Below, one piece after another: positions 1 through 6,000 of a stretch of 51,683 bases of DNA. The stretch covers positions 1 through 51,683 of the forward strand of contig JACPID010000016.1 in NCBI GenBank assembly GCA_016188265.1. Reading direction: 5' to 3'. This stretch comes from Candidatus Woesearchaeota archaeon (GTDB lineage: Archaea; Nanobdellota; Nanobdellia; Woesearchaeales; ARS49). Numbering within the stretch: position 1 is the stretch's first letter; the number at the start of each line of letters is the position of its first letter. Position numbers: made by a program.

Positions 1-3000
1 AAAAACGAGCCCTGGGGGATTTGAACCCCCGGCCATTCGGTTTCTTTTGTTAAGAAAAAACATACTTAATTAAGAGCCGAATGCTCTGACCAGGCTGAGC
101 TAAGGGCCCATTTAATGTTAGAAAATAAAATTCTCTTTAAAAACTTTGCAGTGTTTACTCGAAAAGAATATAAATCACTGATAAATTATTGCATTATGAA
201 TTTAGAAAACTTAACTGAACAACTAAGAAAAGCATTACCTTTGATAGAACGATTTTGTAATAAATATGGTGTTAGGTAGAAAATAAAAATTGATAGCTTT
301 TTCATAATATGATTGATTTGCCTGTAAGAAAAAGAATTATAACAATTTCTGGAACACCTTGTTCTGGAAAATCAACAGTTAATAAAATATTAACTAACGA
401 ACTGAATTATGCTCCTTATTCTGTAGGATCAAAAGTTAAGCAATTAGCTTTAGAACAATGCATTGAGCCTGAAACATTTTACAGAGATAATGTAATTAAT
501 ATTAATGGAAAAAGAGAATCTTTAGATGAGTATTTGGATCATTACCAAAAAAAGTTAGGTGAAACAAAAGATAGGTTTATTTTAGATTCACGTCTGGGAT
601 TTTATTTTATTCCGCAATCTTTCAGAGTATTTCTTACATGTGATTTAGAAGAAACTGCAAGAAGAGCTTATTATGCAAAAAAGAATAATCCTGCATATGC
701 AACAAAAGAATACCAAAGTATAGCAAAATCAAAACAAACATTAATTGAACGAATGGAATTTGAAAAAGAGAATTATTTTAAAAAGTATGGTATTCCTGAT
801 TTTCATCAATCATTTTATTTTGATTTATTTATTGATACAACTATTAGAAATCAAAAATCTGTTGCTGAAGAAATTCTTGAAAAATATTCTATTTATGAAC
901 AAAGAACCAGAGAAATTGAAATCTTCATAAAAGGCTTTCAAACAATGATTACAGGTGAGGTTGTTTATTGCAGCTGTCCTTTGACAGGCGGAGAAAAACT
1001 TTATGAAGTGATGGAGAAATATGGTGTTAAAGATCGTAAAGAACTTTCTACAGAAGTGTTTGAAAAAGAAGTAATGGAGTGGAATGCTGAACAAGGAAGA
1101 ATTTTCGGAGATAAAATTCAGCGAAGAACAAAATCAACAATAATTCTGCCTGTTAAAATAGGAATTTCAGGCTGGTCACAAAAAGATTACATGGATGCAT
1201 GGAAGGAAATTATTAGAACAAAAACAAAAATTACTGCCTTTGAAAAAGGATGGGAATACTCAAATGGCTCAGTAGAAGAATATTTATTATCATTAATATG
1301 GGGAAAACTTGTATATGATCATAACTACCACAAGCTAAAAAAAGAAAAAGCTTTAGAAATTGTTTCAAATGCAGTTGAAAAGATACACAATAAAGGATTT
1401 AAATGCCTTGAATTAAAATTTTTTCTTGAACAATTAAAAAGGCAATAAGCAGGGAAAACTATATAAATAGAATAAGCCTAAACATGTTAGAAAGAGGTGA
1501 TATTAGATGGCAAAGAGAAGAGCTAAAAGAGCGCCAGCAGCTAAATCCCGTGGATTAAATAGTGGACTTTGGAAGTCATTAAATGGAAATGAAGTATTGC
1601 TAGTAGGTCTTGCAGCAGTGCTTGCTGTTTTAGGAATAGTAATGATGGTTTTAAAAGCATTATAAGTTATTAAAGCATACAACCCCTTAATTTTTATAAA
1701 TACAAGCCTATTATTTTTTTATTTAATATGAAAGATATAATTCAGTTAATACTAAAAAGGCCTATGCTTTTTTTTTCAATAATTTTTATTGATATTGTTT
1801 TTATATTTTTGTATGGGGGCATTGTTGCATATTTTCAAGATAAAATAGCAGATCAATTTGCCTTAATGAGTCCTTCTTTAATTTCTCTTACAAAACAAGA
1901 TATTTTCTGGAATGCGCCATTTTTATTATTCACGCAACAAAATGTATGGCAGTACACAAAACAAATAATTATTCAATCAGTGCTACTTTATACTTGTATG
2001 TTGCTGTTAATAGTATTGTTTCAAGGAATGACGTGGTGGTTAAGCAATAATTTTTTTAAAAAAATTAATTTTGTCAAATTTATCAAAAAGTTTACAATCT
2101 TAAGTCTTATTTTATTTACACTTTACTCGATTTTAACAGTTGTGGATTTTTTTCTTGCTGTAAGAGAAAGGGTTGCAGAAAGATTATCAATGCCAATATC
2201 AGAACTATCGCAAACAGTTATTACAATAATTATTTTTACATTAATAATTTACAGTTTGTTTTGCTTTTCAGCTCAACGATTTGTTTTTAAAAAAGCTCCT
2301 TGGAAAAATTTATTTTTATTAGCAGGGCTTATTGCGTTTGTGTTTTTAGTATTACAAGCATTTTTATCAGTGCTAAACAATATTTCACCAGCAATATCAG
2401 TAAGTGCAGGATTTGTTTTATTATTTCCATTAATAGCTTGGGCTCGTATAAACTTGATAGAGGTTTTTTATGGTATGGACTCATAATTTAGATCAGGCAA
2501 TTTTTAGAATAGGATCACTTGAGATAAGATGGTATGGTTTAATGTATGCTTTGTCATTCTTACTTGTGTACTGGTATGTTAAAAAAAGAATTATTGAAGG
2601 TAAAACTAATTTAAAAGAAGAACATCTTGATTGGATGCTAACTTGGGGAGCAATTAGCTTAATTATTGGCGCTAGATTATTTCAAGTAGTATTTTATGAT
2701 CCTTTTTACTATTTTACACATCCTTTGGATATACTTGCTGTTTGGAAGGGCGGATTAAGTTTTTTTGGAGGGCTTACTGGATTTATTATTGCAGGTATTA
2801 TTTGTATTAAAAAGTTCAAGCTTTCTTTTCAAGATATTTCAGATCAATTCACAGTGCCTTTGGCATTAGGGCAAGGACTTGGACGACTAGGAAATTTTAT
2901 CAATGGAGAACTATACGGCATACCAACAAATCTGCCTTGGGGTATTATTTTTCCAGGAACAAATCAACCAAGGCATCCCAATCAATTATATGAATTATTT

Positions 3001-6000
3001 TATAATTTAATAATTTTTGGAGTTTTATGGAGTTTAAAAAATAAACCAAAATATCAAGGTAGATTGTTGGGAATTTTTTTCATATTATACTCGTTTTTCA
3101 GGTTTGTAACTGAGTTTTTAAGAGCAGATAAAGAAACAGTTATAGGATTATTATCATTAAGCCAATGGTTATGTATTCCTGTGCTGATAATTGGTGTATG
3201 GTTATTTATGCGCCAGCATAGAAGTCTTTAAATATAATTAATGTTAATAAACAATAAAATGGGGTTGAGAAAAAGTTTTTTATTAATACTTTTATTAGTT
3301 TTATTTTTATTAATTTCATGTTCTAAAGAAACAAAAAAAGTTGATATTCCTAAAACCCCTAGTTTTGGTTTAACACAAAAACAAGGAAATATTTATGTTG
3401 TTTTTGATTTATCAGAAAACCTGCCAGAAGCAATTTCAAAAGTTGTGCTTGAACTAAATGATATTAAAGTATGGAAAGGCTCTGAAGAGTATTCTATTTC
3501 AGATAAAAAAAGCAGTATAAAAGAAAAAACACTTCTAGGATACAAATTAGTAAGCCAACAAAATTATGATGCAGTTAGTTTTCAAATCAAAGAAGTTCTT
3601 GTAACAATTGATGGTAAAGATCAGAAAGTTATTGTGCCTGTTCAAGCTATTAAAATACCTGTTTTATTTGAAGTAAAAGACAACCTGCAAACAATAATAG
3701 TGGCTAAACTTCTTTCTGAAAACTCATTTAATCGCGTTGGATCTTCAGAGCTTGCATTCTTGCCTGTTTTTGAAGTACAAGTTAGTAATGCGCAAGAGGT
3801 TGTTGTAAAAAGTGATACAACATTTGAAACAGTAGAAAAAATTCTAATTTCTAATGAAGTAGTAAGCGTTAACTTAAAAGGAGCAATAATAAGTGGAAAA
3901 GTAACACAACCTTTACTTATAGTTAAAGATGGAAGAGTTGTTGAAACAGAACTTGTTCAAGATTTACCAAACATGCCTCAATTGCTTGTTGAGAAACCTG
4001 AAAAATCAACAACAGTTGTAATGTCAGAAGATGAATTTAAAACAAGCTTATATAACGGAATGTTAAGCCCTTCACAAATAGTTCTTCCACAAGAAAATGT
4101 TCATTTAAGAGTAAAAAGCAGAGATGATGAGTATAAATTAGAAATAACTGATTTAACAGCGCCATTTATTATTCCTGCAAATGGCGACTATATTCTTAAA
4201 CTTCAGTTAAAAGAAAAAAAAGCGTATCCTGTAAAATGCCACTCGCCATGCAAAGGAAAAATACTAGGATATGTAATTGTCAAATAACATTGAGCGATTT
4301 TTACCAAGCAGATCTTTTAATATACTCTTGCAATATATCTTTAACTGTAATTATTCCAATTGGTTCTTGATTTTCACAAAGAACAACGCTTGTAACATTA
4401 TTATCAACCATTTTTTTAATTACTTCAGATATTTTTAAAGAACTAGCGCAAGTTACACAAGTTGGAAGCCTAGTCATTATATTGCTTAAAGGCTGTTTAT
4501 TCAGATCTTGTTTTTCACCAATGCCATAACCGCTTTTTTTTCCTTTTTGATGTGAAGCAGCTTTTGAGATGTGTACTCCTTGACATCTGGGCCATACATG
4601 AAAATGCGAATATAAATCAACATAACTAACTATTCCTGATAATTTATTATTTGTTCCAATTACAGGCGCACGATCAACATTTTTTTCCTTCATAACATTA
4701 ACTGCATATCCTATAGGAGTATTTTCTGAAAGAACCAGCAATCCTTTTTTTGTAGCTGCTTCAGCAATACTAATACCTTTAAAAAAAGAAGTTAAAGAAG
4801 GAAGAATATCAATAGCATGAACAACTCCATTGACTTTGTCTTTATCAAAAACAGGCAAAACTCTGACATCTGCAGTAACAAATAATTTTGCCATTTTTGA
4901 TTCATCATCAGAAAGCTGCAATTTAGGAACATGTTTTAAAACATGTTTTAAAGTCATTTTATCAGGGTCTAATCGTGAACGTATTAAATATTTTTTATCA
5001 GCATATCCTGCATATTTTTTTCCAGAAAATAACAAAGCATACTGCTGATTTTTTTTAAGTATAACACCCATGAATTTTGAAACTGTATCTTTTATATCAA
5101 GTGAAATAAAGCTTGTTTTCATAATATCTTTTGCTTGAGTCATTCATATCACTTTTTTTTATATAGACCTTTCTGCAAAATTAATTTATAAACTTTGTGT
5201 TTTACAATGAAAGCTTATGCTTGTAAAGCAAAAAGTTTAAATATTCGGATAAGTAATTGTTTTAAGAGGGATAAGTAAATGAGAGAATTTTTATCTAAAC
5301 TTAAAAAAAAATTAACAAGTCCTAGTTACGAAGATCTAGAACAAGAAGAAGGATATGTTGAAATTGATACTGATGTAAGTGAACTTAAAGCAAAAGCTGT
5401 TGTAAGGCCATTTCAAGTTGAAGAATTTGAAGATCTTAAACCAATTTTAGACTCGCTCAGGGAAGGAAAAACAATTGCCATTATTAATATAAAACCAATA
5501 AAAGATAAAGACATTGTTGAACTTAAAAGAGCAGTAAATAAACTAAAGAAAACAGCAGATGCAATTGGCGGTGAAATAGCAGGCTTTGGAGAAGATTACC
5601 TCATTGTAACTCCAGGATTTGCAAAAATTTATCGTTCTAAACAAACAAAAACAGTCGCTTCATCAGAAAATACTAATTCTCAAGAATAAAAAAACATAAT
5701 ATGTCAAAAACTACCTACTAGTGAAATCTTAGTGTTTTAGTTTTTTTTACTGGGGTGGTAGTCTAGCTTGGTTTAGGATACCGGTCTCGGGTAATTTCGA
5801 GAACACCGGTGATCGCAGGTTCAAATCCTGCCCATCCCATTTTTCGCTCTTTGAACCGTAAAGATTCTTTTCTTTGTTTTTACCTATGATAAACAGCTAA
5901 ATAAACTGTGAATTTTTTGAGGCAAATAGGAAGTTTTAAATATATTTAGGTATACTTTAGTATACGGTGATAATGATGGAATCTACAACTATGAAAGTAT

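Follow-up and report, generated by a model that had tools for sequence, protein, structure and literature searches.

A predicted bacterial-type lipoprotein maturation route in a Woesearchaeales genome and most of its relatives

The closest described systems are E. coli Lgt (5AZB/5AZC; PF01790, TIGR00544), the monoderm Lgt-LspA-Lit pathway with the Bacillus cereus Lit (7B0O-7B0R), in which an amine attacks the sn-2 ester carbonyl (passages of PMC8275575), and the archaeal AliA/AliB enzymes (arCOG02177/02178, DUF63; PMC12462473). The latter do the same job, lipidating the lipobox Cys in an archaeon, but belong to another protein family, and their known product is thioether-linked archaeol. Passages of three papers of 2025-2026 (PMC12462473, PMC13251419 and PMC13631571) hold that Lgt and Lsp homologues are missing from archaea. 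In one of them, passages of Hong et al. 2025 (PMC12462473) add that lipoprotein-rich genomes without AliA/AliB need an undiscovered pathway; its Supplementary Data give 12-60 predicted lipoproteins in the five of seven Woesearchaeota rows that were covered and no AliA/AliB in any of the seven, and the passages shown of its peer-review file leave DPANN Lgt unmentioned.

The gene families had nevertheless been counted. Supplementary Table S3 of Castelle et al. 2021 (PMC8204110) lists in its Woesearchaeota module 15 (196 genomes) LGT at 83.2%, Peptidase_A8 at 82.7% and DUF1461, which is PF07314, at 70.9%. The main text of that paper has no match for lipoprotein, lgt, lsp or signal peptidase, and the parts of the paper searched neither name DUF1461 as Lit nor connect the families with lipoboxes, AliA or the kind of lipid. 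Among the matches listed by a full-text search, which mostly excluded subscription literature and supplements that may list the genes, no main text was found reporting Lgt or LspA in Woesearchaeota. A main-text term search gave nothing relevant in 10.64898/2026.05.13.725050, PMC8421398, PMC13473441, PMC6589146 and PMC9287161, and three supplement files of PMC7414124, whose large tables possibly fell outside the search, had no match. Specialist papers still deny archaeal Lgt, but the novelty is smaller than the preliminary description suggests, since all three families are in the Castelle table. It is limited: these are ordinary family members, tabulated in 2021 in 71-83% of Woesearchaeota and undiscussed.

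Lgt and its locus

The window, i.e. the whole stretch of 51,683 nucleotides that was analysed, and two further contigs of the same genome (C11 and C4) carry the following features.

1728..2486, + strand: helical membrane protein of 252 aa whose gene runs into the start of lgt, a recurrent lgt neighbour
2470..3231, + strand: lgt, prolipoprotein diacylglyceryl transferase (TIGR00544, PF01790, 5AZB match, invariant catalytic residues)
3241..4287, + strand: lipobox protein (LISC, Cys27 counted from the first ATG; strict lipobox match), candidate substrate
6679..7973, - strand: Bud32 kinase and ribosomal protein eS1 (S3Ae), archaeal context (TIGR03724; NF003142)
7986..10334, + strand: AglB/STT3-type oligosaccharyltransferase, context (PF02516, 49 bits, cut-off 24.5)
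28646..29353, - strand: second lipobox protein of the window (LSAC; strict lipobox match)
C11:21752-22210, from the first start codon: lspA, lipoprotein signal peptidase (TIGR00077, PF01252)
C4:74929-75522: lit, Lit-family protein (PF07314)

As first described, the lgt gene is intact and of bacterial type. It forms an uninterrupted frame of 253 aa, is present as a single copy in the genome, and its product scores 208.9 bits against TIGR00544, above the equivalog cut-off of 118.9, and 246.1 bits against PF01790 in a profile search, while E. coli Lgt (5AZB) matches it with an E value of 8.8e-42. In the alignment to 5AZB the signature motif and the essential Y26, R143, N146, G154 and R239 are retained, as are all essential residues but His103, and the equivalents of Y26, R73, G98, D129, R143, N146, E151, G154, Y235, R239 and E243 show no variation among the 26 archaeal Lgt sequences aligned. 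Compared with the E. coli enzyme the window copy has a shorter head region (~27 residues fewer between two matched stretches), an archaeal host, Phe at the His103 site and no pathway of its own to the donor lipid. By its sequence the window protein is a prolipoprotein diacylglyceryl transferase, predicted to transfer diacylglyceryl from phosphatidylglycerol to the lipobox Cys.

The Phe noted earlier at the His103 equivalent was read directly as Phe99, codon TTT. Across 73 archaeal Lgt copies, ten of them scored by eye, this site reads H in 67, F in three, I in two and Q in one. According to passages of Legood 2026, His103 is essential in E. coli Lgt, H103A is non-functional, and Y, W or F occur at the site in bacteria. 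It is thus conceivable, though in our estimate unlikely, that the lineage has the pathway while this particular copy is weakened or inactive: the loss of the His prevalent among archaeal copies and an end branch of 0.75 against a median of 0.37 in the FastTree tree speak for it, whereas the intact frame of the single copy, the other essential residues kept, the 29 lipobox proteins, the missing AliA and the Phe in two other archaeal copies and in bacteria speak against it.

The lipobox gene at 3241..4287 lies 9 bp downstream of lgt, and its product matched no Pfam or NCBIfam family; of 32 archaeal loci, 12 have a lipobox ORF no more than 1.5 kb from lgt. The family of the 1728..2486 protein adjoins lgt in 17 of the 32 archaeal loci and in none of 76 bacterial ones; its profile was built from 13 of the 17, and four of the 19 remaining archaeal loci match it. 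This protein has no Pfam match above cut-off, and its model (pLDDT 79) gave no fold match.

LspA, Lit and the lipobox proteins

LspA scores 105.7 against TIGR00077, above the equivalog cut-off of 73.95, and 121.1 against PF01252, and it matches PDB 9EMZ and 5DIR (E 3e-18 and 4.5e-18) with the GNxxDR and FNLAD motifs aligned. The two catalytic Asp motifs, which the earlier reading had noted, read GNIFDR and FNLAD in this protein; among the top-scoring relatives the first is kept in 22 of 23 and the second in 23 of 23. The S-layer gene that it placed nearby lies 240 bp downstream.

For the Lit-family protein the family scores diverge: 39.9 bits against PF07314 (cut-off 24; relatives reach 126 bits), but 39.2 against TIGR01906, under the cut-off of 74.8. 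H77, V81, H139 and F143, which correspond to B. cereus H85, V89, H153 and F157, do not vary among the 23 sequences compared and W147, the Trp162 equivalent, is found in 21 of 23, whereas in this genome's protein Asp88 reads Glu and Asn159 reads Lys. A Lit profile matches 7B0O with an E value of 1.8e-31; the protein's sequence alone gave no match in the PDB. The structure, modelled with a pLDDT of 90.6, is predicted to be a four-helix membrane fold with an extracytoplasmic dome, and its six best Foldseek matches are all Lit (probability 1.0, TM 0.72-0.77), the next having an E value of 1.4. The C4 protein is a member of the Lit family, a call backed by fold and active-site residues, and an O-to-N acyl shift on a diacyl lipoprotein is predicted for it. 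It is among the weakest members of its family. A further Lit match in the genome, to a frame of 89 residues on C22 (E 3e-4), looks spurious.

The set resembles the monoderm pathway in having the same three enzyme families, no Lnt and a single membrane, and B. cereus Lit in its fold and in the retained His85, His153, Phe157 and Trp162 equivalents. It differs in that most relatives' Lgt is of the His103 (diderm-like) type and in that the Lit protein is only 18-20% identical to that of B. cereus, with a product in the archaeon that is predicted by analogy. Lnt (TIGR00546), the third enzyme of the diderm Lgt-LspA-Lnt pathway, was not found in the genome.

The earlier estimate of about 30 lipobox proteins is also borne out. 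A scan of 1100 ORFs by regular expression rather than SignalP gave 22 strict matches with Cys, the next best residues being Leu with 12 and Ala with nine, i.e. 15.7 matches per % residue frequency for Cys against at most 1.6 for the others; the relaxed rule gave 29 with Cys (20.7 against at most 4.5). Lipobox genes stand directly 3' of both lgt (window 3241) and lit (C4:75547), as previously reported.

Distribution, AliA and origin

The survey covered 301 genomes of the phylum, each at least 90% complete and 217 of them from the same order. Lgt was found in 264, LspA in 265 and Lit in 222; Lgt and LspA occur together in 254, at least one of them in 275 and neither in 26. Within the order Lgt and LspA are each present in 206 of 217 genomes and Lit in 182, in line with the claim that most Woesearchaeales have the pathway. 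Together with the Lit fold and active site and the distribution of AliA, these counts make the case for the pathway firmer than it was first put. The trait does not extend across DPANN: Castelle Table S3 (PMC8204110) puts Lgt at 7.8% in Pacearchaeota and 5.4% in Aenigmarchaeota, and at 0% in both Micrarchaeota and Diapherotrites. Although the genes are mostly unlinked, 221 of the 222 Lit-positive genomes have Lgt or LspA; lit adjoins lgt or lies within ~2.5 kb of it in G167, G251, G267, G177, G108, G260 and G235, and adjoins lspA in G253.

We also considered whether bacterial contigs had been binned into an archaeal genome or an isolated transfer had occurred recently. Best database matches to Lgt outside the phylum are indeed bacterial, at 35-44% identity (Proteobacteria, Nitrospirota and Desulfobacterota copies). 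However, archaeal markers share the contigs of lgt (Bud32, TIGR03724 181.6 against a cut-off of 125; eS1, NF003142 E 1.4e-36, under its cut-off), lspA (eS8, Rpr2, S-layer, CarS) and lit (an archaeal A24 peptidase), GC is 0.30-0.33 across all 25 contigs, and contamination is 1.23% at 98.2% completeness. Furthermore, public contigs from three runs join lgt to eS1 unbroken and without a difference, and one from a fourth agrees fully over the greater part of lgt, all four coming from one study that is possibly the source of the assembly. Together with Lgt in 206 of 217 relatives and the window Lgt's 52% identity to members of its family, with which it groups in the FastTree tree, this makes such an origin extremely improbable; as a binning artefact it is refuted, for flanking archaeal genes would have to be mis-joined in hundreds of assemblies.

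AliA, equated with DUF63 via alignments in the Hong et al. 2025 supplement, is found in nine of the 301 genomes, all within the 26 double negatives and all without Lgt, LspA and Lit, and in none of the 275 genomes carrying Lgt or LspA. PF01889 (AliA/AliB, DUF63) had no match in the present genome, while the control matched in three euryarchaeotes; 16 of the double negatives, from families f71 and f75, lack AliA as well as Lgt. AliA and the bacterial set are mutually exclusive in the 301 genomes, which suggests that the bacterial pathway took the place of AliA long ago; given the kinship among the genomes, the exclusion may rest on one or a few events. Such a replacement would explain the gap flagged by Hong et al. 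2025, and the bacterial route looks like their missing pathway for Woesearchaeota. Within the literature searched, neither this exclusion nor the argument from Lit was found in earlier print.

In the FastTree tree a single branch separates the 73 archaeal Lgts from 82 bacterial ones (support 81). A tree with the archaea held together is 48.7 log-likelihood units above the free search (p-AU 0.90, in an AU test run on a quick LG+G4 tree), whereas in two free IQ-TREE searches (65 rows) the monoderm outgroup falls inside the archaea, so that a single origin is not proven. Since the bacterial sample consisted of the best 80 of 600 pattern matches and six plasmid genes, the donor lineage cannot be named. 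With a probability of roughly 80%, Woesearchaeota-type Nanoarchaeota would mature their lipoproteins by the bacterial route, probably acquired once early, inherited since and replacing the AliA system.

Source and type of the lipid anchor

By this bacterial route a Sec precursor with one of the observed lipoboxes would be exported. Lgt, whose site residues are seen, would by homology move a diradylglyceryl group from a phosphatidylglycerol-type lipid to the lipobox Cys, LspA with its two Asp motifs would cleave ahead of the lipidated Cys, and Lit, with its fold and His dyad, may then shift the sn-2 chain onto the amino group exposed by the cut, which would yield lyso-form lipoproteins.

G1PDH, GGGPS and UbiA were not found in the 98.2% complete genome, nor were GpsA, ACP, PlsY and PgpA, while the gene for CarS (146.9 against NF003114, cut-off 148) lies next to that for a CDP-alcohol phosphatidyltransferase, the pair being 4 kb away from lspA; no ether-lipid core synthesis was found and these two are kept, as the preliminary description had it. 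PlsY was found in none of the 55 Lgt-positive genomes tested and PlsC-type matches are patchy (21 of 55 Lgt-positive, four of 25 Lgt-negative genomes). This genome's PlsC-type copy has Ser in place of the Asp of the HxxxxD motif. De novo ester-lipid synthesis was rejected on these grounds. Since no pathway to either lipid core was found, the donor would have to be imported.

Since Lit moves an ester-linked acyl chain, this step favours an ester-linked, bacterial-type lipid. That choice is the weakest step of the scheme, and we infer a scavenged bacterial-type diacyl anchor at about even odds. It is slightly less probable that the Woesearchaeota ancestor swapped AliA for Lgt, LspA and Lit while losing ether-lipid synthesis, its surface proteins now being anchored by ester-linked fatty-acyl lipids from bacteria.

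The same enzymes could also work on an archaeal lipid, with an Lgt that has come to accept archaetidylglycerol, which would either come from an archaeal host or be completed by CarS and the CDP-alcohol transferase; the product would be thioether-linked archaeol as in Haloferax and the Lit homologue would do something else or nothing. Ester carbonyls are not known to be used in the Lgt reaction, and the CarS pair near lspA and the presence of CarS in 19 of 55 Lgt-positive genomes fit this possibility. So do the cultured DPANN that obtain lipids from archaeal hosts (passages of PMC8421398) and the Aenigmarchaeota, where Lit is listed at 18.9%, Lgt at 5.4% and LspA at 0% (Castelle Table S3, PMC8204110), so that Lit can exist apart from the rest. 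Ether chains, however, have no carbonyl for the Lit reaction, and Lit, which the order has in 182 of its 217 genomes, keeps its His dyad and aromatic cage in 23 of 23 sequences. The Castelle table gives the Lit family as 0% for Halobacteria, Methanomicrobia, Thermococci and Archaeoglobi. AliA, which is the enzyme that suits archaeol, occurs in none of the 275 genomes with Lgt or LspA, and CarS, missing in 36 of the 55 Lgt-positive genomes, is not a constant component. We regard this use of an archaeal lipid as possible but somewhat doubtful.

Since the Lit reaction depends on an ester bond, the gene set offers a direct test of the lipids that these uncultured archaea draw on, and hence of their hosts, which is of relevance to the lipid divide. 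If the anchor is ester-linked and comes from bacteria, a large archaeal lineage would have bacterial-type membrane lipids, with bacteria as hosts or prey. Besides 19 PcrB matches that were short and weak and were left uncounted as GGGPS, a full-length GGGPS was seen in one of the 301 genomes, and this genome is AliA-positive and Lgt-negative.

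Genes and motifs of Lgt, LspA and Lit

In the 924 kb genome under study (25 contigs, completeness 98.2%, contamination 1.23%), the window corresponds to contig C19 and carries the gene of prolipoprotein diacylglyceryl transferase (Lgt):

2470-3231, plus strand, lgt, encoding a 253-aa Lgt

The product scores 208.9 against TIGR00544, above the cut-off of 118.9, and matches E. coli Lgt at an E value of 8.8e-42, so that the intact Lgt reported in the preliminary description is confirmed. Bud32, eS1, SepF and an AglB-type gene are found within 7 kb of lgt, and contigs from three public runs, all of one study and possibly made from the source DNA itself, span the stretch from lgt to eS1 with 0 differences. 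The lipoprotein signal peptidase LspA, which shares contig C11 with eS8, Rpr2, an S-layer gene and CarS, passes the TIGR00077 cut-off with both Asp motifs kept, as had been claimed. In the lipobox scan of 1100 called ORFs, Cys gave 22 strict and 29 relaxed matches, which represent 15.7 and 20.7 matches per % residue frequency compared to maxima of 1.6 and 4.5 among the other residues tried at that position; the relaxed count agrees with the ~ 30 lipobox proteins previously counted.

The essential Lgt residues (according to Legood et al. 2026 and Mao et al.) are invariant in 26 archaeal Lgts, which are top scorers and hence biased toward conservation, with the exception of His103 and Arg246 (E. 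coli numbering), the latter site being Lys in some of the 26. Among 73 archaeal Lgts, the His103 site displays H in 67, F in 3, I in 2 and Q in 1, and Y, W or F are described at this site in bacteria (Legood 2026, PMC13251419).

The gene on contig C4 for Lit (lipoprotein intramolecular transacylase) passes the PF07314 cut-off. Used as a single query, this Lit had no PDB sequence match and it lies below the TIGR01906 cut-off; a profile from 23 archaeal Lit homologues matched B. cereus Lit at an E value of 1.8e-31. Furthermore, the six best fold matches of the predicted model of the C4 protein (pLDDT 90.6) are all Lit, and the equivalents of His85, Val89, His153 and Phe157 (B. cereus numbering) are invariant in the archaeal homologues.

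Directly upstream of lgt, at 1728-2486 on the plus strand, lies a member of an unnamed helical membrane protein family observed there in 17 of 32 archaeal loci (L003, L006, L010, L018, L030 and others) and beside lgt in 0 of 76 bacterial loci. Neither a Pfam nor a fold match was found for this protein, which is a candidate Lgt partner, e.g. for lipid supply. Upstream of lspA in many relatives (loci L034-L057; in this genome L001:7186-7816, i.e. C11:22185-22815), a small protein with an F/W-K-K-rich start and a one-helix membrane protein are encoded, for which no family was found. At L048:1468-2544, LspA is 358 aa long with a long C-terminal extension, and three tandem lipobox genes of ~ 300 aa each are located at C8:22866-25716. 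Several Lgt matches were seen in single genomes of the phylum (six in G197, four in G027, three each in G058 and G186). In the window, integrase and transposase fragments were noticed by eye at 19038-22748, and 5967-6472 resembles a RelBE-type toxin-antitoxin pair.

Distribution in the phylum and exclusion of AliA

Of 301 phylum genomes taken in one draw, each at least 90% complete, 264 carry Lgt, 265 LspA and 222 Lit. From the handle lists, 254 genomes carry both Lgt and LspA, 10 Lgt only, 11 LspA only and 26 neither (double negatives). Two of the 301, G243 and G244, are flagged as unpublished; both carry all three genes and no conclusion hinges on either. In the other orders (n = 84) the counts are 58, 59 and 40, and in Woesearchaeales (n = 217) they are 206, 206 and 182. 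Hence the bacterial genes do occur in most Woesearchaeales as proposed, but their presence had been tabulated before: Supplementary Table S3 of Castelle 2021 (PMC8204110) gives, for 196 Woesearchaeota, Lgt at 83.2%, LspA at 82.7% and DUF1461 (the Lit family) at 70.9%, as one module and close to our counts. Term searches of the main text of that paper returned no mention of Lgt, LspA or DUF1461.

The presence of the three proteins in Woesearchaeota is real, lineage-wide and contrary to current specialist statements, since passages in Hong 2025 (PMC12462473), Legood 2026 (PMC13251419) and the 2026 AliA/AliB paper (PMC13631571) describe archaea as having no Lgt or Lsp homologues. The search set given in Legood 2026 is RefSeq of February 2021, which presumably misses uncultured genomes. 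Lgt, LspA and Lit are ordinary members of known families whose presence was already tabulated; the present analysis adds the pattern of AliA replacement, along with a prediction of lipid type and host that can be tested.

AliA (DUF63), assigned from the alignments in the Hong 2025 supplement (PMC12462473), was found in 9 of the 301 genomes, every one a double negative without Lit, and in none of the 275 bearing Lgt or LspA. Because related genomes are not independent, this exclusion may reflect a single event. The remaining 17 double negatives comprise one Woesearchaeales genome with Lit and 16 genomes of families f71 and f75 (G018, G031, G085, G106, G142 and 11 more) having none of the four genes. 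We infer that the latter are Pacearchaeota-type, given that Lgt reaches only 7.8% of Pacearchaeota in Castelle 2021 (Supplementary Table S3, PMC8204110) and that AliA appears in a single row among 19 of the 25 Pacearchaeota rows of the Hong 2025 table (PMC12462473). If so, either a third route must serve the few lipoproteins predicted there or these predictions are false. Among the matches listed, our literature searches found no published report of the AliA exclusion or of the argument from Lit developed below.

With 155 Lgts (73 archaeal, 76 bacterial, 6 plasmid), a single FastTree branch (support 81) parts all archaeal sequences from the rest, the window Lgt being among its own family. When 65 of these rows were searched freely with IQ-TREE, five long monoderm sequences fell within archaea and the 29 other bacterial rows stayed grouped at 100. 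The tree constrained to hold archaea together lies 48.7 log-likelihood units above the free search (p-AU 0.90). A single old acquisition is favoured, not proven.

Lipid donor and proposed pathway

No match was found in this genome for G1PDH, GGGPS, UbiA, GpsA, PlsY, PgpA, Lnt or ACP. The genome does carry CarS, a single CDP-alcohol transferase gene, a PlsC-type gene of divergent sequence and, at L095 (C13:7707-10250), a FabG/FabF-like cluster in which a FabG-like, a FabF-like and a third gene stand in a row. The absence of matches for the ether-lipid core (G1PDH, GGGPS, UbiA) and the retention of CarS and the CDP-alcohol transferase agree with the preliminary description. Full-length GGGPS was seen in 1 of the 301 genomes, an AliA-positive one. 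In a comparison of 55 Lgt-positive genomes, hand-picked across families, with the complete set of 25 double negatives from outside Woesearchaeales, PlsY was found in 0 versus 2, PlsC-type genes in 21 versus 4 and CarS in 19 versus 3. It follows that most of these organisms must import their donor lipid. Some Woesearchaeota are suggested to be episymbionts of bacteria in the main text of Castelle 2021 (PMC8204110).

In Olatunji et al. 2021 (PMC8275575), the two Lit histidines (His85 and His153) are shown to be catalytic, with amine attack on the sn-2 ester carbonyl. Arguing from Lit, we consider it an even bet that the imported donor is an ester lipid. Against an ester donor stand the occurrence of the Lit family in a lineage lacking LspA, the Aenigmarchaeota (18.9%; Castelle 2021, PMC8204110), and the retention of CarS in a third of the genomes.

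With an imported lipid, the precursor would be exported by Sec, lipidated by Lgt using that lipid as donor and cleaved by LspA, after which Lit would carry out an O-to-N acyl shift. From the genes, motifs, fold and distribution we infer each of these reactions, and give the Lgt-LspA-Lit pathway a probability of about 80%.

Some further lipid genes were observed. The AliA-positive genomes G282 and G092 carry tandem PlsY-like genes (L226-L229), adjoined by CarS in G282. A PlsC-type match directly follows lspA in G058 and another lies ~ 3 kb from lgt in G002. At L083 (C10:4600-6623), a PlsC-type acyltransferase gene overlaps an acyl-CoA-ligase-like gene, together with a divergent membrane-transporter-like gene, and this group resembles a lysolipid re-acylation module.
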